From an uncultured delta proteobacterium (lineage in GTDB: Bacteria > Desulfobacterota > Desulfuromonadia > Desulfuromonadales > BM103), in NCBI GenBank assembly GCA_963715335.1, contig CAVQRZ010000015.1:1-31616 (forward strand): a stretch of DNA of 31,616 nucleotides. The letters run 5' to 3'. Made by a program: the position numbers and the translations under genes. Shown one piece after another: positions 1 through 28,549 of the stretch. A model generated the notes under the pieces. That model was not told where the DNA came from. It made no database searches and was given only the letters and a program-made list of their open reading frames with translations. Position 1 is the stretch's first letter, and every line of letters begins with the position of its first letter.

Positions 1-14
1 GTTTCGTCACTCAT
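1..14 (-). CDS. Possible 5' end of a divergent gene running off the window (MSDET...)
   Basis: Minus strand reads aggaaaggcaaccta-ATGAGTGACGAAAC: purine-rich RBS-like tract followed by ATG at 14; too short to identify. Confidence 0.35.
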
Positions 15-159
15 TAGGTTGCCTTTCCTGATCATTGGATGTGGTCATTATAAGCATGTTTATTATCCCTGTCATGGCATAAGATGATGGCTAGCAGGTA
101 AACTGTGATTGCATACGGCAACCTTGTCCGATGATAGTGCCGTTGAACGGAATAAATTC

Positions 160-1401
160 ATGAAACAATATGATGTGATCGTGATCGGCGGCGGACCTGC
201 AGGGCTTTTTGCTGCAGGCTTTGCCGCCCGACAGGGCGCCGGGGTTCTGCTTCTGGAGAAGAACCGGCGATGCGGGGCGAAGATCCTGATAACCGGCAAG
301 GGCCGCTGCAACGTCACGTACGATGAGCAGGATCCGCGCAAGTTCGTGGAACACTTCGGTCGCAATGGCCGGGCATTACTGACCGCACTCTATGCTTTCG
401 GGGTCGCGGAGACTGTCGAGTTTTTTGCCGGCCATGGAGTCCCGCTCAAGGTTGAGCGCGGCGGGCGTATCTTTCCAGAGAGCGGCCTTGCCGAAGACGT
501 GCAGAAGGCCTTGGTCGACTTTGTGCGTGGCGAGGGGGTTGAGATCCGCACGGGGTGCGAGGTCAAAGGTCTCCTGGTCGACGCAGAGCGGGTTCGCGAA
601 ATTGAGACCTCCGACGGTAATTTCGCCGCGGACAAGGTCATCCTTGCTACAGGCGGGCTGTCTTACCCGGAAACCGGCTGTACCGGAGACGGCTACGCCT
701 GGGCGCAGGATTGCGGCCACCAGCTGGTCAAGCCTGGGCCGGCCCTGATGCCGGTCAAACTGAAAGAACACTGGACCTCCGAAGTCAGCAGATTTAACCT
801 CAAGAACGTCCGGATTAGCCTGTTTGTTGACGGCAAGCAGGTCGACGAACGCTTCGGCGAAGCCTTTTTTACCCGTTCAGGTATCGGCGGCCCGATCGTG
901 CTCGACCTGAGCAGTCGTATCCGCGATGCACTGAAGCAGGGCAAGGTAAAGCTGCAGCTCGATTTCAAACCGGCTGTCGTCGCCGAGCTGTTCGACAAGC
1001 GTTTGCAGCGGGAACTGGCCGAGCACAGCAACCTGGATTTCGGTAACTCCCTCGGCAAGCTTTTGCCTCGCGACTTGATCCCGATCTTTGTCAGGCTGGC
1101 CGGAATCGATCCTGCCAAGAAATGCCATTCGGTGACCCGCACGGAGCGACAGCGCCTGCTGAAGCTTTTCAAGGAGATGGATCTTGAAGTGACCGGCTGC
1201 GCAGGCTTTCGGCGCGCGATCATCACTTCCGGAGGCGTTTCACTCAAGGATATCGACATGCGCAGCATGCGTTCGAAGAAAATCTCAAACCTGTTCTTTG
1301 CCGGTGAGATCGTTGACCTGGACGGCCCCACCGGCGGCTTCAACCTGCAGGTCTGCTGGTCGACCGGCTACCTGGCCGGTCTTAAAGCCGCAGAGGAATA
1401 G
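160..1401 (+). CDS. NAD(P)/FAD-dependent oxidoreductase, HI0933/YhiN (BaiN-like) family
   Basis: N-terminal GGGPAG Rossmann motif, KILITGKGRCNVT, ATGGLSYPETGCTGDGY, and C-terminal FAGEIVDLDGPTGGFNLQ, all HI0933 family signatures. Start taken at ATG 160. Confidence 0.93.
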   Translation: MKQYDVIVIGGGPAGLFAAGFAARQGAGVLLLEKNRRCGAKILITGKGRCNVTYDEQDPRKFVEHFGRNGRALLTALYAFGVAETVEFFAGHGVPLKVERGGRIFPESGLAEDVQKALVDFVRGEGVEIRTGCEVKGLLVDAERVREIETSDGNFAADKVILATGGLSYPETGCTGDGYAWAQDCGHQLVKPGPALMPVKLKEHWTSEVSRFNLKNVRISLFVDGKQVDERFGEAFFTRSGIGGPIVLDLSSRIRDALKQGKVKLQLDFKPAVVAELFDKRLQRELAEHSNLDFGNSLGKLLPRDLIPIFVRLAGIDPAKKCHSVTRTERQRLLKLFKEMDLEVTGCAGFRRAIITSGGVSLKDIDMRSMRSKKISNLFFAGEIVDLDGPTGGFNLQVCWSTGYLAGLKAAEE

Positions 1402-1450
1402 TCGGCTCCCGGCTGTCGGGATGCTCACAAAATTCAGATTTCATATATAG

Positions 1451-1982
1451 AGAGTGCAACAGATGGTTAATCTGTTGCACTCTTTCTTTTCTTGAAATGC
1501 GTAAAAGCAAAACCGGCGGGTCGCGTCCCGCCAGACGCCATACTTTTGTCCGGCAACAAAAGTATGCAAAAGTGCCTTCTCCTTGCGGAGGGCATCTCCT
1601 CTGCCGGATGTCTGTGACGTCAAAAGCCTTTACTGATGGGGATCCGGCCCTGTGTCAAAGGGCCTGACCTTGCCGTGTGATTTACCAGGGAAAAGCCAAA
1701 ACAACCTCTACCGATGCAAGCCTCCACAGAAGGAGAGGCTCTCAAGAGCCTCGGCTCCTGCGGGGGAAGCGTAGCCTTTTGATCGTTTAGAACCATCCGG
1801 ATTGAGGTTGCCGCCTTGACGCGCCAGACATGCCCAGCGCAGCGCAGGCCCTTTTCTGCTTACTCTTTTAGGCCAGTAAAAGAGTAAGGCGCAGTCGGGG
1901 GGCGCAACCCCCGGGTTTTGATTTTGACTTTGAATTCCAGAATACAATAGCAAAGTGCAACAGATTAACCTTCTGTTGCACT
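1451..1982. mobile_element. Non-coding MITE-like element with self-palindromic terminal inverted repeats
   Basis: 1453-1481 agtgcaacagatggttaatctgttgcact is the reverse complement of 1954-1982 with one mismatch. Subterminal blocks (~1503-1575 and ~1846-1925) are also imperfect inverted copies. No credible ORF inside. Confidence 0.65.
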
Positions 1983-2177
1983 AAGATTCATAGCGCCCCA
2001 TCTGCCAAACCCAAAAAATCCCGCATTATGTGTAGGATCTGATCAACGATCTGAGGCCGGCCCACGGACTGCCCTTTGTTTATGGAAGCAAACCTGTTAT
2101 AACTTATAAACTTGTAAGTCACGCCAGAATGAACCTGGACTGAATTAATCGTCTGAACCGATAAAAGGGAGGAAAAC

Positions 2178-3209
2178 ATGCAGGATTGGGGCCAGGGTCC
2201 CTCGAGCGACGACCTGGAAAAGAAGGTCATCGAGATCAGGGACTATTTCAAGAACAAGTTCAACCCGCAAAAGGGTTTGCTGCCGATACTGGTCGTCGTT
2301 GTCCTGGTCGTTATCGGCGCCTACACCAGTATGTACGAAGTTGATACCGAAGAGACCGGTGTCGTCCTACGCTTCGGCAAGTTTTCCGGCTTCGCTGAAC
2401 CCGGGCTGCATTTCAAGCTGCCACTCGGCATTGACCGGGTGTACCTGGTGCAGACCGGTCGCGTCCTCAAGGAAGAGTTCGGTTTCCGCACGGTCACGCC
2501 GGATATCCGTTCGACTTTCACCAAGGGTGGTCTGGAAGAGGAATCCCTGACCCTGACCGGCGATCTTAACGTCAGTGATGTCGAGTGGATTGTGCAGTTC
2601 CAGATTTCCGACCCCTTCAAGTTTATCTTCCGTATCAAGGATCCGGTTGATACCATCCGTGACATTTCTGAAGCGATGGTGCGCAAGGCGATCGGCAATG
2701 CCAACGTCACCGAGGTCCTGACCACCGAGCGTGCCCAGCTTGCGAGTGACATTGAACGAGACCTGCAAGCCACTCTCAACCAGTACGATATTGGTGTGCG
2801 GATCGTTACGGTCAAATTCCAGGACGTGACCCCGCCTGACCCGGTCAAGGCGGCCTACAACGAGGTCAACGAGTCTGAACAACAGAGGGAGAGCCTGATT
2901 TTCCAGGCGCGCGAGCAGTACAACCGCGAAGTTCCGCGTGCCCGTGGCGAGGCAAAGCAAGCCCTGCAGGAGGCGGAAGGCTATGCTGTTGAGCGGGTCA
3001 ACAAGGCGCGAGGCGAGACCAACAGGTTTTTGGCGCTGCTCACTGAATATCGCAAGGCCCCCTCGGTGACCCGCAGCCGAATCTACCTTGAAACGCTTGA
3101 AGAGGTATTGCCGCGACTCGAGGAAATTTACGTTATGGACGACAAAACCGGCGGGTTGCTGCCGTTGCTGCCGCTGCGCAAGGCAATGGAAGGAGGGGCC
3201 AAACAATGA
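2178..3209 (+). CDS. hflK: FtsH protease modulator HflK (SPFH/band 7)
   Basis: TM segment followed by GVVLRFGK...PGLHFKLP, LTGDLNVSDVEWIVQFQI, AQGEA-like coiled region, YRKAPSVTRSRIYLETLEEVL; RBS gggaggaaaac. Confidence 0.95.
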   Translation: MQDWGQGPSSDDLEKKVIEIRDYFKNKFNPQKGLLPILVVVVLVVIGAYTSMYEVDTEETGVVLRFGKFSGFAEPGLHFKLPLGIDRVYLVQTGRVLKEEFGFRTVTPDIRSTFTKGGLEEESLTLTGDLNVSDVEWIVQFQISDPFKFIFRIKDPVDTIRDISEAMVRKAIGNANVTEVLTTERAQLASDIERDLQATLNQYDIGVRIVTVKFQDVTPPDPVKAAYNEVNESEQQRESLIFQAREQYNREVPRARGEAKQALQEAEGYAVERVNKARGETNRFLALLTEYRKAPSVTRSRIYLETLEEVLPRLEEIYVMDDKTGGLLPLLPLRKAMEGGAKQ

Positions 3210-4138
3210 AAGCACCTGTGATCTTTTTTGTTGTCATTGCCCTGATCTTTGTCGGCATGGATGGCCTTTACGTGGTTAATGAGGCGGAGCAGGCGATCGT
3301 CACCCAGTTCGGCAAGCCGGTCGGTGATGTGTCCGGCTCGGGGCTGCATCTGAAAGTCCCTTTCGTACAGAAAGTCACCCGTTTTGAAAAACGCATTCTG
3401 AAATGGGACGGCGACCCGAACCAGATCCCGACCAAGGACAAGCGCTTTATCTGGATCGATACCACGGCACGCTGGCGGATCAATGATCCGCTCCTGTTCT
3501 ACACCACGGTTGCCACCGAGCGTGGCGCCATGAGCCGCCTCGACGATATCATCGACTCCGTGGTGCGTGATGCCGTCTCCGGGCGCTTGCTGGTGGAACT
3601 GGTCCGTGGTCGCGACTACCAGTCCCAGGCGGGTGGAGGAGAAGAGCGCTTTGAGGTTGAAGGTGTGGAAATTGCCAAGGAGAACCTGGTTGGCCGTGAG
3701 GAGATCATGACCGGGATTCTCGAAAAGGCCCGAGCCAATACTCCTGAATACGGCATCGAACTGCTCGATGTCGTGATCAAGCGCATCAACTATGTCGAGC
3801 AGGTGCGGACTCGGGTCTACGAGCGCATGATCAACGAGCGCAAGAAGGTCGCCGCCCAGTATCGCTCGGAAGGCGAGGGCGAGAAGGCCGACATCCTCGG
3901 CCAGATGGAGCGTGAGCTCAAGACTATCAGTTCCGAAGCCTACCGCAAGGTGCTCGAGGTGCGCGGTGCCGCCGATGCCGAGGCGGCAGCAATATACGCA
4001 GAGGCATACAACAAGGACAAGGAGTTCTACGCTTTCCTGCGGACACTCGAATCTTACAGGAAGTCGATTAAGGAGAACGGCCGTTTGGTGATCTCCACCG
4101 ACTCAGACTACTACAGGTACCTGAAACAGGCTCAGTAG
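3206..4138 (+). CDS. hflC: FtsH protease modulator HflC
   Basis: EQAIVTQFGKPV, VYERMINERKKVAAQYRSEGEG, FYAFLRTLESY; ATGA overlap with hflK. Confidence 0.95.
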   Translation: MKAPVIFFVVIALIFVGMDGLYVVNEAEQAIVTQFGKPVGDVSGSGLHLKVPFVQKVTRFEKRILKWDGDPNQIPTKDKRFIWIDTTARWRINDPLLFYTTVATERGAMSRLDDIIDSVVRDAVSGRLLVELVRGRDYQSQAGGGEERFEVEGVEIAKENLVGREEIMTGILEKARANTPEYGIELLDVVIKRINYVEQVRTRVYERMINERKKVAAQYRSEGEGEKADILGQMERELKTISSEAYRKVLEVRGAADAEAAAIYAEAYNKDKEFYAFLRTLESYRKSIKENGRLVISTDSDYYRYLKQAQ

Positions 4139-4153
4139 TCCTGGCTTGAGAAG

Positions 4154-5137
4154 ATGACGCTGAGTTCTCGTCAAACGTACCGTGATCTGCTCGACAAGCT
4201 GGTCACACAGGACGTCGGGCAATACGCTTTTGACGTGCCGCTGTCCGGCCACAACAGCTGGCAGATCGGCGGCCCTGCCGATCTGCTGGTTGAGCCCGAC
4301 CGGGCTGAGCAGGTGGTCGCGGTTGTTCGCTTCGCCAGCCAATTCCGGATTCCCCTGGTCGTCATCGGCCAGGGGACCAATCTGCTCTTTGACGATGCCG
4401 GCCTGCGCGGCGTCGTGCTCAAGCTGGGCGAGAATTTTTCCACCATCAAAATCGAAGGAAACCACATCACCGCCGAGTCAGGGGCCTGGGTCCCGGGCTT
4501 GGCGCGCAAGGCGATGCTGGCCGGCCTGGCCGGGCTCGAGCACATAGTCGGCATCCCCGGCACGATAGGCGGGCTGGTCCTGATGAACGGTGGCAGTCAA
4601 CGCAAGGGCATCGGGGAGAATGTGCGCCGGGTCCAGTTTGTCAGCCGCGAGGGTGAGATGTGCGAGCTGAACCGCGAGGAGTGTGTATTCTCCTACCGGA
4701 AGAGCGCCCTGCAGGGGGTCGGCGCCGTGGTGGTCAAGGTTGAACTGGAATGCGAGCGCCTGGATTCACGACGAATCCGTCGCATGATGCTTGATGACCT
4801 GCGCGAGCGTCGACGCAAGTTTCCACGCAAGGAGCCGAATTGCGGCTCGGTCTTTTTAAGCACCAGTGAAATGCACGCGAGTGTCGGCCCGCCCGGGAAA
4901 ATTATCGAGGAGGCGGCTCTGAAGGGCTTTCGCATTGGCAATGCCGAAGTCTCGCGTCAACATGCCAACTTCATCGTCAATCGTGGCGGGGCCACATCCA
5001 GGGACGTGCTCGACCTGATCAGTCATATCCGTCGGACGGTCAGGGAAAGAATCAGTTTCGACCTTGACTGTGAAGTCCGTTATGTCAGCCCGGCCGGGAA
5101 CATTCTACCGGCGCACCTGGCTGGTCGACAGAACTGA
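4154..5137 (+). CDS. murB: UDP-N-acetylenolpyruvoylglucosamine reductase
   Basis: HNSWQIGGPAD, IGQGTNLLFDDAG, GLEHIVGIPGTIGG..MNGG, FSYRKS, PNCGSVF, VSRQHANFIVN. Confidence 0.9.
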   Translation: MTLSSRQTYRDLLDKLVTQDVGQYAFDVPLSGHNSWQIGGPADLLVEPDRAEQVVAVVRFASQFRIPLVVIGQGTNLLFDDAGLRGVVLKLGENFSTIKIEGNHITAESGAWVPGLARKAMLAGLAGLEHIVGIPGTIGGLVLMNGGSQRKGIGENVRRVQFVSREGEMCELNREECVFSYRKSALQGVGAVVVKVELECERLDSRRIRRMMLDDLRERRRKFPRKEPNCGSVFLSTSEMHASVGPPGKIIEEAALKGFRIGNAEVSRQHANFIVNRGGATSRDVLDLISHIRRTVRERISFDLDCEVRYVSPAGNILPAHLAGRQN

Positions 5138-5531
5138 TTGCCTCGACAACAGCCCCGACCTGTTCCACCCATTCCAGCACATCGGTCAGTCGAAAAGGTT
5201 TTCTGAGCACATGCAGACCTTCTCCCCTGATCTGTGTTTCCTCCTCATCGGTCATGGTGCTGCTCATGATTGCCTTGCTGCACAATGGAATTTTACAGCC
5301 ATTTTCAGTCAAACCGGTCAGGGCTTCGACGACGGAGGCAGCGGGCCTCTTCATGTTGACAATGACCGCATCGGCACAAGCTGTGCCAGACGGGCACTGG
5401 TTGTCGCCGAGGAGATTGAAGGAACAGATGTGTGGTTCGGGGAAGGCCCGGACTTCATGACCATGATTGGTCAGGAGGGTTTTCAGTCTCTCCAGGGTTG
5501 ATCTGTCGTTGTCGAAGATAGTGACTTTCAC
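5085..5531 (-). CDS. Atypical single-domain response regulator receiver with Cys-rich insert
   Basis: VTIFDND...GHEV...DAVIVNMKRP...MSS...LRKPF receiver pattern; Asn at the phosphoacceptor position. GTG start at 5531 follows gggga; ATG 5546 is an alternative. The 3' end overlaps murB. Confidence 0.7.
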   Translation of the reverse strand: MKVTIFDNDRSTLERLKTLLTNHGHEVRAFPEPHICSFNLLGDNQCPSGTACADAVIVNMKRPAASVVEALTGLTENGCKIPLCSKAIMSSTMTDEEETQIRGEGLHVLRKPFRLTDVLEWVEQVGAVVEAISSVDQPGAPVECSRPG

Positions 5532-5773
5532 GGCGATATTCCCCATACCAATGCACACGATATATATACGTTTGTGCATTTTTCGAGCCTTTCCGTGTAA
5601 CATGCTGAAATAATGGAGTTGTTACTGTTCTCGGGGGGCACATGGCCGTCAATTGACGGACTGTCACATGTGCAGATCTCAGGGTTTCGGTGTTTTGCCT
5701 GGATTTGTCCTGATCATCGATTTCGGTGTATCATGAAGTGTCAATACTGGTTACGAACTGTCAGGACGATAAG

Positions 5774-6079
5774 ATGACCGATCGAAATGAGATTGTTCTG
5801 GAAACCGAAAACGTCCGTGTCCGCATCATGTCCCTCGAAAACGGCGCGGCGACGGCGTGGCATTATCACACCGAGGTAACGGACAGCATGTTCTGCCTGG
5901 ACGGGCCTGTTGCCGTTGAATTCCGCAACCCCGACGCATGTATCGAACTCGTCAATGGCCAGCACTGTGATGTTTCTGTCAAACGGGTGCACAGAGTTGT
6001 CAACCTGAGTACACGGCAAGCTAAATATCTTTTGGTCCAAGGTATTGGACACTATGATTTTAACGTGGTGGAGAAATGA
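5774..6079 (+). CDS. Cupin domain protein
   Basis: WHYHTEVTD..FCLDG and a second-motif VHRVVN. Confidence 0.85.
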   Translation: MTDRNEIVLETENVRVRIMSLENGAATAWHYHTEVTDSMFCLDGPVAVEFRNPDACIELVNGQHCDVSVKRVHRVVNLSTRQAKYLLVQGIGHYDFNVVEK

Positions 6080-6373
6080 GGGCCGGGAATGTTTAACTGT
6101 TTTTTGATTTTACTGTAGAAGTTTCCCCGGAACAACGCGCTAATATACCGTCCTCGGGGTTGAAAAGAGAGTCCTGCAAATCCTGGGATGATACCGTAAT
6201 TCAGTTTTTAGGAAAGCCCCAATCCGGAAAAACCGGATGGGGGTTAATTTTGTCGAAAATAATGAATCATAAGATCTAATCAGAGCTCCCCTGCTTAAAA
6301 ACAACCAGTGAGCCATGGATTCAGGTGTTAATATTTCAAAGTCCTTTAAACTTTTTAATATGAGTTCCTGACT

Positions 6374-7846
6374 TCAGTCCACGGGGAACTCAAGCCTAAC
6401 GGTGCATCCACCCCCTGGGGTTTCTTCTAACTGGAGATTCCCTTTAAGTCTTTGCACGATTTTGTGGACCGTCGCCAGCCCAATTCCTGTTCCACTAACG
6501 CGGCCAGATGTCGACCCTCGAACAAAAGGATTCAATACTGACTCCCGCTCCTGTTCTGGAATACCAGATCCGTGGTCAATGATTAAGAGAGAATGGCGTT
6601 CGCCGTTCGTTTCACCCCGGACTTCCACCAGTCCTCCCTGTTCACACCCATAGCGTATGGCATTCAATAACAAGTTGCTAAACAACTCGTACAGTAGCGT
6701 TTCGGGGATCTTCAGTTGCGGCAAGCCACCGTTATCTATGAGCGCTTTCTTTGCTTCGATCTCAAATCTATTATCCAGTAATACTTGTAAGACAATCTCA
6801 TTGGTGTTAACGGGAATGTCCGTGAGTACAACGTGGTCCACGGTCGAGTAGCACAACATATCCTCTATTATGTTTAACATTCGGCCGGCTTGGTTTTCAA
6901 TTTCCCCCAACATTTTAAGCCCGTCACCTCTAAGTTCCTCTCCATATTTTTCTTTGATGAGCTCGATATAGCAACCGACTCCAGTAAGAGGAGACCGCAG
7001 GTCATGCGACACGGTGTGAGCAAAAGAATCAAGTTGCTTGTTCACCTCAGTCAATTTTTCTAAAGCCTCTTTGCGCTCAGTAATATCACGGCAGACCGCG
7101 AGTTTCTGAATGTCTCCTCGTGGGCCATGCACCGGCGAATGGATCACTTCATAGACGCGGTTATGTGGTTTGAAGTCACACTCTTCTATAACAGCACCAC
7201 TAACAATCTTTCCCCAGGGACAATCTTTACAGGGAGCTTTACGACCATGGATAACTTCGTAACATCTTTCCCCGTGTTTTGCGCCAAAGACCTTCTCCAT
7301 TGCTTTATTGAAGAAATCAATACGCAAATCCGCCGTGACGATATAGGCCATATCGGTCATACCGTCCAGGATTGAGCGTAACCCGGCTCTTTCCTCCTGC
7401 AGGGCGGAAGTCCGACTTTTAACAAGTTCTTCAAGTTGTTCGCTATGGACACGAAGTTTGCCCTCTAGTTCTTTTTGTGTGGTTACATCAATAAAGGTTT
7501 CAATGCCGCCGATCACCTCACCATCCAGACGTAGAAAATCGATGTTTTTATTAATGACAATCTTTCGGCCGGCCTTGGTGTGAATTTCACATTCTGCACC
7601 AATAATAGGTTTTTCTGGAGTTCCGGCGTCATAAAGGCCGCAACCACGGCCACATTCAATCCCCTCAAGGATTGAACAATTGTTACCGACAACCTCTGAA
7701 GATGAATAGCCTGTTATTCTTTCTGCTTCGCTGTTCCAGTAGACAATATTACGTTCGGCATCAACCAGAAAAAGCCCACTAGGAATTGTTTCCAGTATCT
7801 GGTCTTTGGAAAGGACTTCTAATAGTCGACTGTTACGAAGCTTCAT
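6374..7846 (-). CDS. Cytoplasmic two-PAS sensor histidine kinase
   Basis: Two PAS domains, H-box FAHTVSHDLRSPL, N-box NLLLNAIRY, DHGSGI and GTGIGL G boxes; no TM segment. Confidence 0.92.
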   Translation of the reverse strand: MKLRNSRLLEVLSKDQILETIPSGLFLVDAERNIVYWNSEAERITGYSSSEVVGNNCSILEGIECGRGCGLYDAGTPEKPIIGAECEIHTKAGRKIVINKNIDFLRLDGEVIGGIETFIDVTTQKELEGKLRVHSEQLEELVKSRTSALQEERAGLRSILDGMTDMAYIVTADLRIDFFNKAMEKVFGAKHGERCYEVIHGRKAPCKDCPWGKIVSGAVIEECDFKPHNRVYEVIHSPVHGPRGDIQKLAVCRDITERKEALEKLTEVNKQLDSFAHTVSHDLRSPLTGVGCYIELIKEKYGEELRGDGLKMLGEIENQAGRMLNIIEDMLCYSTVDHVVLTDIPVNTNEIVLQVLLDNRFEIEAKKALIDNGGLPQLKIPETLLYELFSNLLLNAIRYGCEQGGLVEVRGETNGERHSLLIIDHGSGIPEQERESVLNPFVRGSTSGRVSGTGIGLATVHKIVQRLKGNLQLEETPGGGCTVRLEFPVD

Positions 7847-8198
7847 GAGAACCCTTTTTGAGAACAACGCATAGTGACTAAGTAAACGGAGTGCGATTTA
7901 ACGTTGCCAATTTACATCAGTAAACAGACGAGGTCAAAGGAGAGAGTGGCTTATTTATATTGATACAATGCTGCAGGGTACTCAGATTGGCTGAAATACG
8001 AAAATTTTACTGACCCTGACTAACAAGAACAGCCAGCCGTTCCTGGATGGCCTTTTCTGTTAGGATTAAATGCTATCTCGGGAAGGCTAGAATCTCCATA
8101 GAAAATAGAAGTCGGTGAGGAGTGACCAGCTTTAGAGTTAAATCTTCAAACACAACCACCGTGGAAGTAACTGGCAGAGCATCCCTGAGACAGACATA

Positions 8199-8227
8199 TT
8201 GACAAAATCTCAACATGACTATATTAA
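8199..8227 (+). promoter_or_regulatory. Putative sigma70 promoter
   Basis: TTGACA (8199-8204), 17 nt spacer, TATTAA, upstream of RBS taaggagg. Confidence 0.45.
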
Positions 8228-8269
8228 TTATTTTTAAATATTTTTTCTATATTTAAGGAGGTCCCCTCG

Positions 8270-9109
8270 ATGCCCAGAAAAATTCTTCTATCTTTCCTAA
8301 TTATTGCTACGCTCGGTTTAACAGTCTGTGGTTTTGCTCTCAGCGAAACGGACCATCTTAAATCGGCCGGTTGCAAGACCGAGATTTATCTCCTGAAAGA
8401 TATCGCAGAGGCATACAAGGCACAGACTGGCAAGTCAATCCGCCTGGGCGGCACTGGAAACAAAACAGCTGTCGACCTACTGCTGGAAGAGAAGGTTGAC
8501 TTCACCTTTACCTGCAAACCAGTTGATAAGTTGGCCAAGGGGATGAAGCTCGACAAAGAACAAGTCTCCTCATGGCAAAGCATTGCCCTTGCCAAAGACC
8601 CCGTCGTGATCGTTGCAAACCGCGACAATGGGATCACGAACCTCACGACAGACGAATTGACAAAAATTTTCCAAGGAGAAATCAGCAACTGGCGAGAGCT
8701 CAAAGGCAATAATTTGCCGGTTTTTCCCGCCTACCTCTCAGACGACCTGGAAAGTGGCCTTGTCTTATTGTTCAAAGAGTTCACAGTGGGGGACAAAGGC
8801 GAGTTGACTGACAACGCGATGAAAGCCAAAGCGCCCGATATGCTAGGCAACTACACATCAGTGACACCAGGTGCAATCAGTTTTATGAATTTTAATGCCT
8901 ATGATGAAAAATATGGCAAGATCCTTAAAGTGAATGGAATTCTGCCAAATGAGGAAAATATCCGCAACGGGACCTATCCCTTAACCGCTACCTATTTCCT
9001 GACGATTGATGGCAGGAACAACCTTGCCGTAGCAGAATTCATTGCTTTTACTAAGTCGGAGAGTGGGCAAAACGCAATCAACAAGAATTACATCTCAGTT
9101 TCTGAGTAA
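8270..9109 (+). CDS. PstS-like (PBP type 2) periplasmic substrate-binding protein
   Basis: Signal peptide, LAKDPVVIVANRDNGITNLTTDELTKIFQGEISNWREL, ENIRNGTYPL, FTKSESGQ. Confidence 0.85.
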   Translation: MPRKILLSFLIIATLGLTVCGFALSETDHLKSAGCKTEIYLLKDIAEAYKAQTGKSIRLGGTGNKTAVDLLLEEKVDFTFTCKPVDKLAKGMKLDKEQVSSWQSIALAKDPVVIVANRDNGITNLTTDELTKIFQGEISNWRELKGNNLPVFPAYLSDDLESGLVLLFKEFTVGDKGELTDNAMKAKAPDMLGNYTSVTPGAISFMNFNAYDEKYGKILKVNGILPNEENIRNGTYPLTATYFLTIDGRNNLAVAEFIAFTKSESGQNAINKNYISVSE

Positions 9110-9216
9110 AGATTGGTACTGATTATTAGGACGGTAGGGGGTGCCCAAAATTCATTCTTCGCTCACGTCCATTCAGGAAATTATTTCGACGGAGTCTTCT
9201 ATGGTAGGTGAGCGCA

Positions 9217-9285
9217 CAGGGTGCGGAGCGAACGCTACTACTTTGGGCGCAGGGGGGACTGGTTGAAATCCAATCATCCCGACCA
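9217..9285 (+). pseudogene. Degenerate tRNA-Pro(TGG)
   Basis: cagggtg...ctttgggcgcaggggggactggttgaaatccaatcatcccgacca resembles tRNA-Pro (TTTGGG anticodon loop, GGTT.AAATCC T-arm, CCCGACCA end). The D-arm is disrupted and TTC is mutated. Confidence 0.65.
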
Positions 9286-9567
9286 TCTTTAAATGAGAGC
9301 GACTTTCCCGGGGTCACACTTTTTTTCTTCCGGGCCATGTCTGGTCCGAAGTCTTCTCTATCGGACAAACTGAATGTTCTAAAAATGACGTCTTTTGTGC
9401 TCTGGTCTTGGGGTTTGTTTCCGGGTTATCTCTGGGGTGTTTTGGAAATGTCACTGAATACTTGTTTTCAACAAATCTTACCGTACAATGAAATTGAGAT
9501 TCTTTAATCTTGGTCAAACAGTAAGGACCACCTACGGATTCTTACTGAAATCCGAGAGGAGAAAAGT

Positions 9568-10098
9568 ATGCCAGACTTGTCCACAAATGATGATGCTTGG
9601 AGCCCTTATCTCGCAGGGGGATTATCGGGAATCGTGTCCATTCTATCGGTCTGGATTGCGGGTCATTTCCTGGGCGCCTCGACCACTTTTGTTCGTACTG
9701 TTGGCTTACTTGAAGAATTCATCTCTCCCGAGCGAGTCGCACAAATGGAGTATTTCATAAAAACCACCCCGAAGATCGATTGGCAGTGGATGTTCGTAGT
9801 CGGCATCTTCATTGGGGCTTTCATTGCCGCTCTGAGTTCTAAGAGCTTCAAATGGCAAGGCTTACCCGATCTATGGCAAAAGCGGTTCGGATCTGAGAGC
9901 CAAGGCAAACGAGCTGTCTTCGCTTTTACCGGAGGTGCTATAGCGATGTACGGAGCCAGACTGGCTGATGGCTGACCGAGCGGTCACGGGCTGAGCGGTT
10001 CGCTCCAGCTAGCTATCAGTGGTTTTGTTTCATTGGCATGCTTCTTCATTGGCGGTGTGTTTGTCGCTCGCCTCATCTACGGAAGGAGCCAGCCATGA
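9568..10098 (+). CDS. YeeE/YedE-family sulfur/selenium transporter subunit, predicted selenoprotein (UGA at 9973-9975 = Sec), 176 aa
   Basis: WSPYLAGGL and DWQWMFVVGIFIGAFIAA; GARLADG-[TGA]-PSGHGLSGSLQLAISG matches the family motif GARLAxGC(T/P)SGHG. The frame continues to TGA 10096-10098, which overlaps the next ATG. Confidence 0.88.
9990..10009 (+). promoter_or_regulatory. Putative bacterial SECIS hairpin
   Basis: gctgagcg-gtt-cgctccagc: stem with one bulge and a small G-first loop about 23 nt downstream of the UGA. Confidence 0.6.
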
Positions 10099-10622
10099 AA
10101 ATGCTCATCTATGGTCTTATAACCGGCATAGCTTTTGGCTTCCTGCTTCAAAAGGGCCGTGTCCTACGCTATGACAAGCAACTTGGAGCGCTATTGTTCA
10201 AAGATATGACCATCATTAAATTCATGCTTTCAAGTGTTTTAGTGGGAATGGTTGGAGTCTATCTTTTGGTTGACCTAGAACTAGCTAAACTAAGTATCAA
10301 AACAACTGTATTGGGGGGAAACATAATTGGTGGGCTGATCTTCGGTGTCGGATGGGGCTTACTTGGATACTGTCCAGGCACCTCAGCCGGAGCCCTTGCA
10401 GAAGGTCGTTGGGATGCTCTCTGGGGTATCATCGGAATGCTGGTGGGAGCGGCAGTGTACGCAGAGGCGTTCCCACTCATGAAAAAAACTGTTCTTACCT
10501 GGGGTGTTTTTGGCAAGATTACCCTACCGGAAATACTTGGAATAAACCATTGGGTGATTATAGTCATTGTTGTTATTGCAGGCTTACTCCTATTCAGCTT
10601 TTTTGAGAAGAAGAACCTTTAA
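10095..10622 (+). CDS. YeeE/YedE-family membrane protein, second subunit
   Basis: GIAFGFLLQKG, FKDMTIIKFM, GGLIFGVGWGLLGYCPGT; RBS aaggag and ATGA coupling give a start at 10095. Confidence 0.9.
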   Translation: MKMLIYGLITGIAFGFLLQKGRVLRYDKQLGALLFKDMTIIKFMLSSVLVGMVGVYLLVDLELAKLSIKTTVLGGNIIGGLIFGVGWGLLGYCPGTSAGALAEGRWDALWGIIGMLVGAAVYAEAFPLMKKTVLTWGVFGKITLPEILGINHWVIIVIVVIAGLLLFSFFEKKNL

Positions 10623-10850
10623 GGCCGTAAAAAAAAGCCCCACAATCATGAGGGAGAGGGGAAGAGAAAAAACTTTGGGAACGAAGGGCGGTTCCGGGGC
10701 TTCTCGGGGTGTTTCCAAGGTGGCCAAGATTAGGCCGCTCTTATTTATCTTGACTGCACAAATGCAAAAATATATGGTCCGCAGTGCTTAGTGTTATCTT
10801 CTGAGCCATCGACTCACGGATATTCGACACCAACACATAAGGAAACTGAT

Positions 10851-11588
10851 ATGCTCAACACTCGATTCTACAGAATTTTTCTCATGACTTTTTTTCTCAC
10901 ATTATCAACAACAGCCTTAGCCGGCGTTTACAAGGTAATTGGGCATGCAGAGCTAAAGCAATTAGTTGATTCCGACTCCCACACCTTCCTGCTGGTAGAT
11001 GCAAGAAACCCAGAGGAATACAGAGAATCCCATATTCCGGGTGCAATCAATATCCCTGAAAATAAATTTCAAAACTCTATTGGTCTGTTACCTTCAGACA
11101 AAAACATGAATTTGATTTTCTACTGTAACGGCATCAAATGTGGCAAAAGTAAAAAGGCCGCAGATCGAGCGGAGAAGCTGGGCTATACCAACATTCTAAT
11201 TTTTGCAGAGGGAATGCCCGTCTGGGAAGAACTCGGGTACTCATTTTACAAAAGTGGAGACTACGAAAAACGAATAGAGACGACCAAGATAGCCCCGGGC
11301 GCATTAAAAGAACTTGCTGACTCGCAACCTGACACCCTCCAAATTGTCGATGTCAGAGATGCCGAGGAGTTTGCTGAAGGGCATATACCAGGAGCGATAA
11401 ATTGTCCGTTATCAACCTTTGCCGCGTCTTCAGAAATTCTGGACAAGAATAAAAAAGTCGTTGTCTACTGCAACTCTGGAGGGCGGAGCTACAGTGCGTA
11501 CAGAAAGTTGATGAAGCTTGGATACCAGAACATTGCTCAATCCCTTTTTGCAGATTGGAAGGATTCAGGGTTACCGGTAGAGCTGTAA
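10851..11588 (+). CDS. Exported tandem rhodanese (sulfurtransferase) domain protein
   Basis: Signal peptide ending TALA; two domains with DAR/DVR..E..HIPGAIN and active-site loops FYCNGIKC and VYCNSGGRS. Confidence 0.9.
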   Translation: MLNTRFYRIFLMTFFLTLSTTALAGVYKVIGHAELKQLVDSDSHTFLLVDARNPEEYRESHIPGAINIPENKFQNSIGLLPSDKNMNLIFYCNGIKCGKSKKAADRAEKLGYTNILIFAEGMPVWEELGYSFYKSGDYEKRIETTKIAPGALKELADSQPDTLQIVDVRDAEEFAEGHIPGAINCPLSTFAASSEILDKNKKVVVYCNSGGRSYSAYRKLMKLGYQNIAQSLFADWKDSGLPVEL

Positions 11589-11691
11589 GAAAAGAGGACA
11601 TATACTAACTGCCCTTATGAATTTGCAGGAAGGTTTGTGCTGATTGTGGCAACTTACTGCCCTAGCAGCCAGACACACACAAACATCAACT

Positions 11692-11723
11692 AGCCCCAGT
11701 CATCCCGGTTGGGGCTTTATTTT
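11692..11723 (+). terminator. Putative intrinsic terminator
   Basis: agccccagtc-atccc-ggttggggct followed by ttatttt. Confidence 0.55.
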
Positions 11724-11899
11724 AATCTTCTCGCATCGCTTTAAAGTTTCCATATTCGCCTAAATGAGAAGTTCTTGGCGACCCTGAACTTATAAGCAAA
11801 TGGCCACTCGAGATTCATCCAGGTGACCATCGTTTTGTTGATGAGGGGACGTCTCAAACAACTCTATCAATAACACGCCTGCCAGTCGTGACTTGCAAG

Positions 11900-12010
11900 A
11901 AAAAAAGCCCCACAGTTCTGGAGGTAGAGACTGTGGGGCAAGCTTTTCTATGTTTAGGAGGTTTTGAAGAAGATTATCTCTGACCCGCCTGCCACAGCAA
12001 GTCTTCGATG
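11900..12010 (-). ncRNA. Putative ~110-nt sRNA, copy 1, with anti-SD CCUCC motifs
   Basis: Near-identical to 30290-30398. Ends in GCCCCACAG...CTGTGGGGC-T7 terminator; -10-like TAAATT at 12022-12017. Confidence 0.6.
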
Positions 12011-12140
12011 GTTGTTAATTTATCGAATCCTGCAAGAAAAAGATACGTGGTGTCTGGTAAAAATTGAATCTACATCACACGAAAATGAACTGTGCAATGA
12101 CGCACTACCGAATGTCCGATTGATAGCGATCAATTACACG
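11900..12140. repeat. ~240-bp dispersed repeat, copy 1 (copy 2 at ~30290-30528)
   Basis: Direct alignment by eye, e.g. shared tgtttaggaggttttgaagaagattatctc and gtaaaaattgaatctacatcacacgaaaat. Confidence 0.95.
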
Positions 12141-12226
12141 CCTATTTAAGTCTTGGCAGTGGAGATAAACCATCATTGCAGCGTAAATCGACAGTGCGCT
12201 TCTTCGTGTCAGCTGGAGTTGTCATT

Positions 12227-19923: not shown

Positions 19924-19997
19924 GGCGGTCGGCCAAAAATGGAAAGTTCTTTGGTTTGTCACGATTTCGGCGGTGAAAACTATTAATCCATAAAATT

Positions 19998-20026
19998 ATG
20001 GCCACCCGATACCCGGTGGCCATTTT
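19998..20026. terminator. Hairpin, probable terminator
   Basis: atggccacc-N8-ggtggccat followed by ttt. Confidence 0.55.
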
Positions 20027-20175
20027 CATTTAGCCCTGATCAGTGGAATCACGTAAATTTTCATGATATCTCTGGTTAATAAACAGAATCATATCGGGAC
20101 CGCTTTATCCTGAGCGCAAGCCTAACTAGCTGATGTTTTTGATAAAGAAACAAAAGCTAGCGCCGGCATTCTTCG

Positions 20176-20206: not shown

Positions 20207-20285
20207 TCTCCGATAATGGCAAAACCGATGCGAGTCGGTGACGCAAAACCACAGGCCCCATGAGGGCAGCTGGGTTGCCGAAGGG
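20207..20285 (+). promoter_or_regulatory. c-di-GMP-I (GEMM-I) riboswitch
   Basis: cgataatGGCAAAACCGAT-GCGA-GTCGGT-GACGCAAAA-CCACAGGCCCCATGAGGGCAGCTGGGTTGCCGAA: GNRA-capped P2, GACGCAAA junction, P3 and a GYUGCCGAA end. Confidence 0.88.
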
Positions 20286-20370
20286 AAAAGCATCAAGAAG
20301 ATCTTTTTGCTCGTCTCGGCGCTTCGGGACGAGCTTTTTGTGTTAAGTGATTCGAGAAAGGGGTGGGTCA

Positions 20371-20760
20371 ATGGCAATCAAGATCGTAGACATCATTGTC
20401 GAGAGGAGAGGCAAGATTCTCTTGACGAAAAAAGGCGACTTCTGGATTTTGCCAAGCGCAGAGAACGAGCCCGGTGAAGACGAGATGCATTGTCTCGAAA
20501 AGATTGTCGCTCTAGAGATCAATGATCAGGTTTCAAGCGTTTTCAGAAAGCTTGAAAAATCCATCAGAGGCCTTTCTCCTGTCAGGGGGGGAGAAGTTGA
20601 AGTCTCTACCTATGTCGGGGAGATCAGTAGCACGAAAATGTCTGAAGTGCGGGATTGTAATGCCTACTGGTTTAGCAGAGAGAGTCTCCCTTCGGTAAGG
20701 CTTTCCAACATTACCAAGGAAGTATTGAACGCCTATTTTTCTGAAGGGGCAGAAGGCTGA
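20371..20760 (+). CDS. Nudix-fold protein with degenerate Nudix box
   Basis: IIVERRGKILLTKKGDFWILPSAENEPGEDEMHCLEKIVALEI ... SEVRDCNAYWFS. Confidence 0.75.
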   Translation: MAIKIVDIIVERRGKILLTKKGDFWILPSAENEPGEDEMHCLEKIVALEINDQVSSVFRKLEKSIRGLSPVRGGEVEVSTYVGEISSTKMSEVRDCNAYWFSRESLPSVRLSNITKEVLNAYFSEGAEG

Positions 20761-24509: not shown

Positions 24510-24744
24510 CCAGTCGGTTGTTTCCCGTCAACCAGCACTGTCGAGACGAAAACGTGCGTGTCTCTGATAGACACGTTTGGCCTGTCCTTTAGTATAATTG
24601 TGGCTGGCCGGACTCACGCCGGGCGGCCCTTTGTTTTAAGAGGTCGTTGGACTGTGTTCTTGCACAGGTGCTTTTCGTTGAATAGGGGCTCCTTTTTTAC
24701 GAGTCCCCACGTTTATTTTTACATCGCAGAGGCGTATCTTATGA

Positions 24745-24864
24745 GCCAACAGAGAGTTGTTGTGGAAAACGGGTCCGCAACAACCGTGCTCATAACCTCC
24801 TTATAGCCCGTTACCCTAATACCCCACAGTCGCCCCCCCCCTCCTGACTGTGGGGTATTTTTTT
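24745..24864 (+). ncRNA. Putative sRNA, diverged third member of the CCUCC family
   Basis: 5' hairpin gttgttgtgga/tccgcaacaac, unpaired AACCTCCTT, terminator aataccccacagtc-(C-rich, CCTCC)-gactgtggggtatt-T5; upstream region homologous to the promoters of copies 1 and 2. Confidence 0.55.
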
Positions 24865-25332: not shown

Positions 25333-25785
25333 GATCTCTGCCCTTAGCTTTATCCACTTCAAGCGACATTATAACAATAAAAATTACTGGGGGAAGCATT
25401 TACTCCACTTCATCCTCGATAAAGTGGTGATTCGGTTCGCAGATTATGCAAGCGTCGCCAAGAGGCCCTAATTAAACCAGCCGGTGGCACACTAAAAATA
25501 ACGAGGATGTTCAGGGAATTTGTTGCAACAGCATTAATTGGAATTTCGCCAGGAGATAAACCGGTCTTTACTGTGAATGGTGACTTGTGAGAATCGGAGT
25601 CAGACACCCGGTGCTTATCGACAGTCACTGAAGGTAATCATGCAAATGGCAGGGCCATATCTGACCCTGCCGTTCATTCCTGCAACATCCCGTGTCTGAT
25701 CTCTGTAAAGAGACCGACGTATCAATGCAGAGTGGTTTTGGTTAGGTGACAAATATACTGTTTCGCATTTTTCCGTGTCAACTTT

Positions 25786-26442
25786 TCAGGAATGAACCAG
25801 GCCGTCTCTGATTTGTACGGTCCTCTGGGCACGGGCTGCAAGTTCGGTATTATGAGTAATCATGACCGTGGCCAGTCCGTTCTGGCTGAGCGAACGCAGA
25901 AGCGAATAGATCTTGTCACTGTTTTCGCTGTCAAGGTTTCCGGTCGGTTCATCCGCCAGCAGAATCTCGGGGTCGTTGACCAGTCCTCGAGCGATGGCAG
26001 TCCGTTGCATCTCACCGCCGCTGAGTTGCGCAGGGGCATGGTCGAGTCGGTGCTCTAGCCCCACCATTTCGGCCAAGGCCATGATCTTGCTCCGGCTTGC
26101 CTGCTTTTTGCTGAACAGTAGCGGCAAAGCGATATTGTCAAAGACGCTCAGCCCCGGGATCAGGTAGAACTGCTGAAAGACAAAGCCGATCTTTTCACGC
26201 CGTAATTGCACCAGCTCCGACTCAGGCATCTTGGAGGTGCTCATGCCATCAAACAGCACCTCGCCTTTGGTCGGCTGGTCGAGACAGCCGAGGATATGCA
26301 GGAGGGTGGTTTTACCCGCCCCCGAGGGTCCGATAATGGCGAGCAGTTCCCCCGCAGCAATGCTGAGATCGACTCCACGCAACGCCCTGACCTCTTCAGA
26401 CCCTCTACGGTAGCTTTTTTCAATCTGTTTAAGTTCAATCAT
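25786..26442 (-). CDS. ABC transporter ATP-binding protein (LolD/MacB-type)
   Basis: GPSGAGKT, IGFVFQQFYL, LSGGEMQR, LADEPTGNLD. Confidence 0.95.
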   Translation of the reverse strand: MIELKQIEKSYRRGSEEVRALRGVDLSIAAGELLAIIGPSGAGKTTLLHILGCLDQPTKGEVLFDGMSTSKMPESELVQLRREKIGFVFQQFYLIPGLSVFDNIALPLLFSKKQASRSKIMALAEMVGLEHRLDHAPAQLSGGEMQRTAIARGLVNDPEILLADEPTGNLDSENSDKIYSLLRSLSQNGLATVMITHNTELAARAQRTVQIRDGLVHS

Positions 26443-27605
26443 CCTTTAATCGCCTCGACGGGGTTAATTTTCGATGCCTTCAAAGCCGGATAAATCCCGG
26501 CACATAGGCCGATGATAAAAATAAACAAGACACTGCCTGCGGCAACGCCGGGATCAAAGCTGATCAGGTCCCCGGACGGCACAAACGGCATCACCGAACG
26601 AACAAAAGCTTCGATCATTCGCGAGCCGAGGATCGAGATGAGGATGCCGACCAATCCGCCACTGAGAGAAAGAATCGTGGTTTCTTCAAGAATAATCCGG
26701 AAAATGTCCCAGCGTGAGGCACCAACGGCGCGCATCATGCCGATCTCCTGAGTACGTTCGAAGACCGCCATGAGAATGGAATTCATCACCCCCACGGCAC
26801 TGATCAGAATCGCGATTAAAACAATCGCGAGGCTCAGCGCCCGGGCGGAAGCGGCCAGGTTGGAAATTGAGTTCATCACCTCGCCCATGGTCACGATCTG
26901 GATGCCCGGCACTGCGGCCGTCAGCGCATCGGTAATCTCCACCATGCGCGTCGGGTCCGTTACCTTGACCCCGACAGCCGTTGCCGCAGCAGGATGATCG
27001 AGCAGTTTCTGTGCTGTCTTGATGGGAAGATAGACAAAAGCGTCATCCTGGCTGCCGGTGAGGCCTACAATCCCGGCGATCACCAGATTAATGCCGTTGT
27101 TGGTCGAGGTAAACCGGTCGCCGGGCTGCAACTTCTCGTGTTGGGCGACCTCGTAACCCAGCAGGATTTCATTGTCCTGCTCAGGGATTTTGCCGGTAAT
27201 CTGCCAACCGGGCTTGATCGCCGACAGAACAGACATGTCGACACCATAAATCAGGTCAATTTTGCCACGCTGCGGATCGGGGAGCTGGGCCACCAGAATC
27301 GGCGTTGCCAGATCGATGCCATCTGTGGCTGTGACATGCTCCATGACCTTGGTATCGAGAAATTTAGGAATAACCGCGCCGTGCAGAACCAGTGCCGCAA
27401 CCTCGTGTGCACACCCTGAAGGGACGACCATGAAGTGCAATCCGGTTCGCTCCAGTTCGACCGCGAGACCCTTGGTAAAACCTTGGTTAAAAGAGAGCAC
27501 TGAAAACAGAACGCCAACCGAAGCGGCAATCCCGAGCATCGTTAAAGCACTGCGTGTACGGTGCCGAAGAAGATTCTTGGCGGCAAGCTTCAGATAGCCG
27601 TTCAT
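26439..27605 (-). CDS. ABC transporter permease (MacB/FtsX-type)
   Basis: RSALTMLGIA, periplasmic domain, MAVFERTQEIGMMRAVGA, YPALKASKINPVEAIK. Confidence 0.93.
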   Translation of the reverse strand: MNGYLKLAAKNLLRHRTRSALTMLGIAASVGVLFSVLSFNQGFTKGLAVELERTGLHFMVVPSGCAHEVAALVLHGAVIPKFLDTKVMEHVTATDGIDLATPILVAQLPDPQRGKIDLIYGVDMSVLSAIKPGWQITGKIPEQDNEILLGYEVAQHEKLQPGDRFTSTNNGINLVIAGIVGLTGSQDDAFVYLPIKTAQKLLDHPAAATAVGVKVTDPTRMVEITDALTAAVPGIQIVTMGEVMNSISNLAASARALSLAIVLIAILISAVGVMNSILMAVFERTQEIGMMRAVGASRWDIFRIILEETTILSLSGGLVGILISILGSRMIEAFVRSVMPFVPSGDLISFDPGVAAGSVLFIFIIGLCAGIYPALKASKINPVEAIKG

Positions 27606-27961: not shown

Positions 27962-28096
27962 TTGTAATAACCTCGATTAAGTGGTTTGCGGATACTCGGA
28001 TTCGTGCCTTCTCTCCGGTCTCACGCTGGTGATGAACCTGGGCCACGGGGCACATGGTTCTCAGCCTTTGATGGCGAATGAAACGATGCGCCTGAC

Positions 28097-28393: not shown

Positions 28394-28463
28394 AGCGTTC
28401 TCTCTCACGGTCGGCCAACAGGGTGAGGCAGGTGAGCAGGAAAGTTGTTTTGAGGGTGTTCAT
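28356..28463 (-). pseudogene. Probable truncated htpX 5' fragment
   Basis: RBS ggag followed by MNTLKTTFLLTCLTLL, typical of an HtpX N-terminus; the frame then diverges and stops after 35 codons. Confidence 0.45.
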
Positions 28464-28549
28464 TTCATTGATCTCCGTATGGTTTGATTGCGCCGTAAGC
28501 AAAAGAAAAGATCTTTACGGCGCGGTAAGATTGTTTTTAAACAAACCCA

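Follow-up and report, generated by a model that had tools for sequence, protein, structure and literature searches.

The LhrC1-5, Rli22, and Rli33-1 small RNAs (sRNAs) of Listeria monocytogenes are multicopy siblings in which a 5′ stem-loop is combined with a CU-rich single-stranded stretch and a terminator loop that is also CU-rich. One two-component system controls most of them and another regulator controls one, and they pair with the Shine-Dalgarno (SD) regions of envelope-protein mRNAs (PMC5880928). In the Alphaproteobacteria, the cuckoo/ar14 RNAs (RF02344; NfeR1 and RSs0680) present an anti-SD loop over freely varying stems. The number of modules is variable and tandem copies occur, with two to four adjacent hairpins that each carry CCUCCUCCC (PMC4615179 and PMC10746234). 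Candidates of the CsrB/RsmY/RsmZ type have been described in G. sulfurreducens (PMC11934962).

Here, we describe a cassette that we interpret as encoding a family of sibling anti-SD sRNAs not described before, similar in working to LhrC and cuckoo and a member of neither. The layout is that of LhrC (multiple copies, a CU-rich linker and terminator loop, and more than one type of regulator), with targets that are predicted in our case. Unlike LhrC, the 5′ loop reads GUGGCA and is not CU-rich (two of the three positions are), the carriers belong to a different phylum, and the cassette gave no Rfam match at E values up to 1 in the window, by which we mean the whole 31,616-nt stretch of DNA that was analyzed. 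The anti-SD motif kept in a hairpin loop, the varying stems, and the tandem copies are shared with the cuckoo RNAs. Unlike in the cuckoo RNAs, the only hairpin loop with CCUCC is that of the terminator, the second motif lies in the linker, and the 5′ loop is GUGGCA (67/77 members). The ar14 model scored 33.4 and 24.2 bits on 2 of 10 homologous loci, compared with a gathering score of 58.8, and did not match the window copies.

Two further groups invite comparison. The RyhB/PrrF-type sRNAs are iron sparing, and the family resembles them in the Fur-like box of one homologue (L190), in the operator that one type of sibling has in common with feoAB and ahpC, and in the multiheme cytochrome among the best predicted partners of these operator-type siblings. 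It differs from them in that there is no sequence match and in that the window copies carry activator-type boxes and no Fur box. CsrB, RsmY, and RsmZ are sponge RNAs, and the family is similarly multicopy, with a small repeatable hairpin and a promoter that seems to serve these RNAs exclusively; unlike the sponges, its loop is GUGGCA, the hairpins number at most two, and two or more GGA motifs are present in only 14/77 members. No description of the family was found in the open-access literature searched, although tables of predicted sRNAs in supplements may list these loci, and the same search turned up nothing on regulatory sRNAs of Desulfuromonas-type bacteria.

Copies of the cassette in the window and the genome

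The cassette is present in three copies in the window and in about 16 copies in the genome. An earlier note on this DNA had reported a noncoding block that occurs twice. Both of these copies were verified, but a third and more diverged one on the plus strand (24653 to 24864) had been overlooked. Copies 1 and 2 share 86% identity over 218 ungapped nucleotides (11930 to 12147 and 30318 to 30535), and a longer alignment of the two spans 241 nt at 85% identity (E = 5e-73). Covariance model R1, built from 21 close sequences, assigned 134.7 bits to the predicted sRNA of copy 1 (11899 to 12012, minus strand), which is ∼113 nt long and begins with ACCAUC at a predicted start of 12012 to 12009. The predicted sRNAs of copy 2 (30289 to 30400, minus strand) and copy 3 (24745 to 24864, plus strand) scored 119.9 bits and 62.8 bits (E = 1e-11), respectively. 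Across the genome, 13 of the 18 R1 matches listed had an E value of 4e-5 or better, and a diverged long copy (C14:112887) and two short copies (C6:77747 and C6:111306) found beyond the R1 set bring the total to about 16. The locus C12:22307 is a possible copy of the 3′ half. No Rfam family, among 4,227, matched the coordinates of the cassette at E values up to 1, so the possible novelty proposed in the earlier note, which had named this search as a check, stands.

Two of the ∼16 genomic copies are located on contig C28, which repeats much of the window at 91 to 99% identity. Given this repetition and an assembly contamination of 6.87%, the two copies may belong to a second strain. The assembly as a whole may mix strains, judging by its contigs: window positions 6208 to 11781 and 25337 to 30776 are without a counterpart at the same place in C28, and contig C41 matches window positions 1 to 6071 at >99%. 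A degenerate 3′ half of an RNA of this type, with a C-rich tract, GUGGGGC, a U tract, and a poor stem, was also seen at 10628 to 10700 on the minus strand; it received no score from the covariance model.

Structure of the predicted RNA

The minus strands of copies 1 and 2 fold more stably than shuffled sequences (z = −3.77 and −3.23), compared with −2.05 and +0.43 for the plus strands and −0.68 and +0.45 for the 130 nt upstream; copy 3 reaches a z score of −5.98. The GC-rich 5′ hairpin region noted earlier on the minus strand is present in both copies. In copy 1 it forms an 8-bp hairpin (11982 to 12003) with the loop GUGGCA at 11995 to 11990, followed by the CU-rich linker CUUCUUCA-AA-ACCUCCU (11956 to 11972) and by an intrinsic terminator with its U tract (11900 to 11939), whose loop CCUCC (11924 to 11920) has an unpaired probability of 1.0. 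The corresponding parts of copy 2 are the hairpin at 30391 to 30370 and the CCUCC motifs at 30349 to 30345 and 30314 to 30310, all on the minus strand. The 5′ hairpin of copy 3 has diverged, and its CCUCC motifs are located at 24796 to 24800 and 24840 to 24844 on the plus strand. The strong terminator with CCUCC in its loop and the stem substitution of C to U opposite G, both reported in the earlier note, were found again in the sequence.

The linker is complementary to AGGAGGU and UGAAGAAG, i.e., to the SD sequence and the start of MKK-type genes, which makes the copy 1 linker a candidate pairing seed. The unpaired AAAACCUCCUAAAC of the earlier note is present as a motif, but in copy 1 the CCUCC of the linker is buried in the RNA's own ensemble. 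The mean unpaired probability of this CCUCC is 0.16 in copy 1, compared with 0.79 and 0.99 in copies 2 and 3, respectively. The consensus fold leaves it unpaired, and the individual folds expose it in 4/6 copies. The CCUCC of the terminator loop is unpaired (0.99 to 1.0) in all 7 of the copies folded. The family therefore combines a conserved structure with an exposed anti-SD motif.

Conservation of both stems with compensatory changes was observed among the homologues; the earlier note had named a lack of structural conservation as a refutation. In an alignment of 41 sequences that had not been fitted to a model, RNAalifold recovered the 8-bp 5′ hairpin with five pairs changed on both sides. 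Among the 21 close sequences, pairing holds for 97.1% of cells, and changes on both sides occur in 8/18 pairs, compared with 0/500 shuffles; many members of these alignments (A1 and A2) had been found by a pattern in which part of the hairpin is fixed. For 77 model-aligned sequences, 16/18 pairs change on both sides, and the covariation score is 0.644, compared with 0.211 for shuffled and at most 0.164 for slid alignments; this alignment (A3) is fitted to the model and is thus a lenient test. Among the 77 members, the GUGGCA loop is retained in 67, CCUCC near the 3′ end in 64, CUUCUUC in 40, two CCUCC motifs in 38, CUUCUUCA in 29, and at least two GGA motifs in 14.

The linker differs between clades, and the terminator stems are fully exchanged between clades with the CCUCC loop kept. 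The GUGGCA hairpin, the best-kept 5′ feature and not itself anti-SD, behaves as a module of zero to two copies: it is doubled in tandem in 9/57 homologues, and it is absent or replaced in 7/29 activator-type and 19/29 operator-type promoter matches, where the CCUCC terminator loop stays. The smallest member, at 62 nt, consists of the terminator hairpin alone. The constant core of the family is the promoter, the CU-rich linker, and the CCUCC terminator loop. The linker of the short siblings, CUUCUUCAUG-N4-ACCUCCU, is complementary to an entire ribosome-binding region that includes AUG AAG AAG. Short copies were also considered as the 5′ ends of MKK genes and rejected, as the open reading frames (ORFs) end after 8 to 20 codons.

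A putative activator-type promoter precedes the long copies

The −10-like hexamers given for copies 1 and 2 in the earlier note were verified on the minus strand (TAAATT at 12022 to 12017 and TATCTT at 30410 to 30405), but that account of the promoter had overlooked two dedicated upstream boxes. Each long copy has a promoter with the boxes TGTGC-N4-GCACA (box A), TTTACG-N6-CACGT (box B), and TAnnnT at fixed spacing. Relative to the A of ACCATC, box A lies at −92 to −79, box B at −49 to −33, and TAnnnT at −10 to −5, as read without gaps from 57 homologous upstream regions. The T, A, and T of the −10 box are kept in 56, 55, and 56 of the 57 regions, and each position of box B is kept in 48 to 57. 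In copy 1 (minus strand), the −10 box TAAATT occupies 12017 to 12022, at the position that is fixed in the homologues; box B, TTTAC(C/G)-N6-CACGT, at 12045 to 12061, is predicted to take the place of a −35 box as an activator site; and the palindromic box A, at 12091 to 12104, is a predicted upstream regulator site. Matrix and pattern searches placed the three boxes of copy 2 at 30405 to 30492 (minus strand) and those of copy 3 at 24653 to 24740 (plus strand), with TATCTT as the −10 box of each. A sigma-70 scan of the cassette promoters returned no promoter-like site and no −35/−10 pair; the lack of a −35 box suggests that transcription depends on an activator. ACG recurs at a 10-bp interval in the promoter, an arrangement reminiscent of response-regulator sites.

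A weight matrix of the promoter, trained on a set that included near relatives of the scored genome, found nine genomic sites of 34.5 to 47.7 bits, every one in front of a family copy. The next-best site scored 13.1 bits, and the maximum in shuffled sequence was 12.9. Among the matrix matches in the genome there was no gene besides the sRNA family, and no regulator gene recurs among the 66 ORFs scanned of the 85 that flank family copies. The promoter pattern alone, with two mismatches allowed, was present in 60/75 genomes of the same order and in 0/75 from the other orders of the class; a reversed-pattern control matched 0/151 genomes. In a test blind to the RNA, 29 distinct promoter matches were obtained (re-found in 30 returned loci), and 28 of these have a terminator call within 230 nt. 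The terminator has a CCUCC-like loop in 26/29 matches, and the GUGGCA hairpin is present in 22/29. The background frequency of a CCUCC-like loop is 15/338 terminator-like hairpins of the genome, the family itself included. The cassette thus has sequence signals, as distinct from activity, of its own promoter and its own intrinsic terminator that are independent of the neighboring genes.

Sister copies share a putative operator with feoAB and ahpC

In the shorter siblings, as well as in long siblings of another family, the palindrome T.AC-N7-GT.A sits between TTGACA and a −10 box (18/18 cases). This operator was found only in the present order among those searched, with the operator-type promoter pattern in 22/75 genomes of the order and in 0/75 from other orders. 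Of 29 operator-type matches, 25 lead to a terminator with a CCUCC loop and 4 to a short ORF; the one of these four that was scanned is rubredoxin-like. Twelve operator sites of at least 20 bits are present in this genome, compared with 0 and 2 in two shuffles, and they precede five family copies and seven genes, which by eye are feoAB, ahpC, two yceI genes, two hydrolase genes, and one without an assignment. Gene-associated sites were recorded at G000:C29:66667, C33:61092, C14:111829, C30:26973, C9:52624, and C10:27327 and at L248 to L251. The operator looks like the site of an oxidative- or metal-stress repressor.

Several candidate regulators of this operator were rejected. IscR, suspected from its consensus, was dropped because such a site is missing in front of the three Rrf2 genes and because the cysE-iscR-iscS-iscU operon has none among the top matches. 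No PerR site listed in Table 7 of PMC545781 fits the operator, which also differs from the deltaproteobacterial Fur box WTGAAAATNATTTTCAW given in that paper. The Fur box itself sits separately at feoAB and fur in this genome. In homologue L190, a Fur-like box with two mismatches to the WTGAAAATNATTTTCAW of the same paper lies between the −35 and −10 boxes; the window copies are without a Fur box and carry the activator-type boxes instead. Three promoter types thus lead to the same RNA core.

Range of the family

A strict pattern recovered 56 loci in the genome collection, the carriers named by their record titles being Desulfuromonadales, Desulfuromonas, Geoalkalibacter, Malonomonas rubra, a few “Geobacteraceae” bins, and unclassified deltaproteobacteria. 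Model R1 matched 61/75 genomes of the same order and 0/75 from the other orders of the class. The broader model R2 matched 74/75 genomes of the order (Desulfuromonadales, a name based on these titles), so the covariance search across genomes that the earlier note had suggested finds the family almost throughout the order. In the comparison set outside the order, which presumably includes Geobacter, R2 gave weak matches (E of 1e-4 or worse) in 13/75 genomes, and in a sample of the phylum it did so in 15/150; these matches were left out of the member counts. Ten of the phylum matches were read and one is a clear member, the operator-type short sibling L117 (G288:C204:557-650). It is near the siblings of this genome and lies in a genome of another class, which may reflect transfer or a binning error. 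Two matches in G110, from another order (L169 and L176), have CCCUCC-loop terminators behind CU-rich tracts and neither promoter, and are possibly distant relatives. Together, L117 and the two G110 matches make a range wider than the order possible. The number of copies per genome reaches about 20, and most genomes of other families have one to six. One carrier, Malonomonas rubra DSM 5091 (L080), is in culture; since cultured strains carry the family, direct testing is possible.

Genomic setting and an associated repeat

Copy 1 is convergent with the rhodanese gene at 10791 to 11588 (plus strand), as stated in the earlier note, which had concluded from this that the RNA is not simply a leader. 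That conclusion is strengthened by the wider set, in which 25/42 downstream neighbors are convergent and 17/42 are on the same strand. The functions of the 66 flanking ORFs scanned, of 85, are unrelated, and tandem arrays of family members occur. Taken together, the convergent neighbors, the unrelated functions, and the tandem arrays exclude a plain leader. A gshA-tkt setting recurs (L026, L028, and C1:50822), and tkt is also present at L116.

The cassette showed no consistent terminal inverted repeats or target duplications: the best inverted matches were 5 to 8 nt long and scattered in 24/25 copies (the 25th locus was too short for the test), and the direct repeats found around cassettes belong to a separate repeat of ∼120 bp. 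Plasmids, phages, and viral contigs yielded no match to the cassette. Full copies of the ∼120-bp repeat are located right after the terminator of copy 1 (11782 to 11895, minus strand; homology to C28 begins at 11782) and immediately before the copy 3 promoter (24528 to 24640, plus strand), and its left part is fused to the promoter of copy 1 (12126 to 12167, minus strand). The repeat ends in a GGCCACC hairpin and has about 20 full and many partial copies, including part of one at 19986 to 20032. It forms same-strand clusters with copies 0.6 to 1.7 kb apart in variable islands (G000:C5:54028-57133 and G000:C43:32092-35624), a spacing like that of the spacers of a gene-cassette array, and the spread of the cassette within this bacterial family may be due to it. 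The junction of copy 1 with the repeat contains an FNR/HcpR-like palindrome, TTGAT-N4-ATCAA (12120 to 12133; compare the consensus wyTTGACnnnnGTCAArw of PMC1274295), which was rejected as a part of the promoter because its position coincides with the junction to a separate repeat and only close relatives have it. Copy 2 lies within 25336 to 30777, a stretch absent from C28, and copy 1 borders another swapped region. The copy 2 stretch also encodes a TnpV-like ORF (PF14198; 28097 to 28408, minus strand).

RNA sequencing data

Seventeen RNA runs each contained a small share of the words of the stretch, and 8 runs from 7 studies were compared. The RNA pieces are unstranded contigs of relatives, of which 20/28 and 26/65 were listed. 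Among the listed pieces, 10 contigs from 5 studies end at 12010 to 12012, which is the predicted start or just within it; 16 extend into the promoter, to 12013 or farther; and 5 end at 11995 to 12003. Two listed contigs cover nearly the entire predicted RNA. The summed depth of run X1 is on par upstream of the predicted start (114) and within the RNA (92), and the missing coverage to the right of 12147 is uninformative. These contigs, which come from relatives and from libraries that may contain DNA, give a weak hint that the copies are transcribed from a start near 12010 to 12012.

Predicted targets

Target predictions used 2,659 gene starts and signal peptides called with rough in-house scripts. 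The long seed of copies 1 and 2 matched 561 start regions below −14 kcal/mol, compared with 398 to 831 for flank-shuffled seeds, and 197 below −17 kcal/mol, compared with 116 to 312, and thus showed no excess. Scans of the genome with the 5′ end and the terminator loop likewise gave no excess over controls. The shift of the long seed toward exported proteins was equaled by 1/10 shuffles; a Cache-domain protein and NAD kinase ranked highest among its individual partners.

In the case of the short sibling C28:57812, each of the four top-scoring start regions belongs to a protein with a signal-peptide-like start: a cytochrome with eight CxxCH motifs (−33.8 kcal/mol), a lipoprotein-like protein, an outer-membrane protein of the GSU2204 family, and the same Cache-domain protein. 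The best energy was equaled by 1/40 shuffles and the fourth best by 0/40. In the orthologues of the cytochrome, the 12 scorable start regions of 13 gave −14.6 to −29.5 kcal/mol; as these energies are weaker than −33.8, the near-perfect match is not conserved. Genes with heme motifs were not enriched in the top 3% (one found and 0.6 to 0.7 expected). Exported proteins whose genes begin with AUG AAG AAG are, with weak support, the likeliest targets, and this applies to the short siblings only. The genome encodes Hfq.

A proposed mechanism and its alternatives

The cassette itself, the spacing of its promoter, the covarying stems, the loop motifs, the copies throughout the order, and the hfq gene are the basis for reading the family as sRNA genes. 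The view in the earlier note of a multicopy and possibly undescribed anti-SD family gains from the lack of an Rfam match, the covariation, and the fixed promoter spacing; the occurrence throughout the order, the modularity of the GUGGCA hairpin, and the siblings with other promoters had escaped that note. Probably, each cassette is a free-standing gene and the siblings act in trans, blocking ribosome binding through the CCUCC motifs of the linker and the loop. An activator would bind boxes A and B, and transcription would begin near 12012 and be stopped by the terminator near 11900, yielding an RNA of ∼110 nt. The CU-rich linker and the terminator-loop CCUCC would pair with SD and start-codon regions, presumably with the assistance of Hfq, such that translation would be repressed. 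The many siblings may provide dosage and may allow one RNA output to answer several types of regulator, which would include an activator, a repressor at the operator common to feoAB, ahpC, and rubredoxin-like genes, and, at one copy, a regulator of the Fur-like box. The GUGGCA hairpin is predicted to be an accessory module that binds a protein or stabilizes the RNA.

Some observations sit poorly with an anti-SD sRNA: the linker varies between clades and is buried in the copy 1 fold, GUGGCA is not anti-SD, the long seed performs no better than controls, the cytochrome match is not conserved, and the RNA contigs are unstranded, come from relatives, and in 16 listed cases extend into the promoter. 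The lack of a target excess for the long seed would be expected if the RNA were mainly a protein sponge, with the GUGGCA hairpin titrating an RNA-binding regulator as in Csr/Rsm systems and the CU tracts serving folding or Hfq loading. The persistence of the loop in 67 of the 77 members over a freely covarying stem and its tandem doubling in 9 of 57 also speak for a sponge. GacA serves RsmY/Z, and the exclusive use of the promoter by family RNAs in this genome was counted on the same side by this analogy. We nonetheless consider a sponge unlikely as the main role, because it is the hairpin that is lost or replaced (7/29 and 19/29 matches) and the CCUCC terminator loop that stays, because the 62-nt member has nothing except the terminator hairpin, and because so few members (14/77) have two or more GGA motifs. 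Sponge activity could coexist with an anti-SD role.

Near-identical copies at unrelated places, the location of copy 2 in a stretch absent from C28 and of copy 1 at the border of a swapped region, and the proximity of several copies to the ∼120-bp repeat of the variable islands would all suit a nonautonomous mobile or recombinogenic repeat, whose promoter and hairpins serve its own spread. This is very unlikely given that terminal inverted repeats, target duplications, and matches in plasmids, phages, and viral contigs were not found, that most genomes of other families have one to six copies, some at the common gshA-tkt locus, and that three promoter types drive one RNA core; the ∼120-bp repeat may explain the expansion in this bacterial family but not the conservation of the element. 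Less probable again is the antitoxin of a type I toxin-antitoxin pair or a cis-antisense RNA, with GGAGG, a start codon, AAG AAG, and a small peptide on the opposite strand. An SD-like motif and a start codon do face the RNA in 39/57 homologues, and the opposite strand of the short siblings reads AGGAGG-N6-ATG AAG. The peptide was rejected, however, as the ORFs range from 3 to 56 amino acids and share a common frame in just 9/57. One sibling also has ACG instead of ATG with the stem still paired, copies 1 and 2 have too short a spacer and different stops, and the conserved promoter and terminator signals all face the other way. The least probable role is that of a cis-acting leader, attenuator, or riboswitch of the downstream gene. 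The 17 same-strand neighbors and an alternative fold of copy 1 that hides the linker would be in keeping with it, but the other 25 of the 42 are convergent, the functions are unrelated, tandem copies occur, and the terminator formed in all folds computed.

For a family of sibling anti-SD sRNAs, a broader and doubtful extension is an order-wide hub, in which an activator with sRNA genes as its only targets, an oxidative- or metal-stress repressor, and Fur would each turn on siblings resembling the complement of an entire ribosome-binding region (SD, spacer, and AUG AAG AAG). These siblings would throttle, as a class, the exported multiheme cytochromes and porins of extracellular electron transfer, and the GUGGCA hairpin would recruit an RNA-binding protein. 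In sediments and on electrodes, Desulfuromonas-type bacteria reduce iron, manganese, and sulfur. Being near universal in the genomes searched from the order, present in up to ∼20 copies, and equipped with a promoter seen nowhere else in this genome, the family would be a central posttranscriptional layer in these bacteria, and if the predicted partners hold, oxygen and iron stress would be linked to the synthesis of electron-transfer cytochromes. The promoter points to a transcription factor recoverable with an 88-bp probe.

Other features of the window

Elsewhere in the window, the Rfam search returned two chance matches and a c-di-GMP riboswitch, and nothing more. The riboswitch (c-di-GMP-I-GGC; 20209 to 20283, plus strand; 64.9 bits) precedes an ORF at 20347 to 20760 that has no Pfam or NCBIfam match. 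A 530-bp noncoding repeat with palindromic ends is located at 1453 to 1982 and has at least 41 long matches in the genome (40/93 candidates scored).
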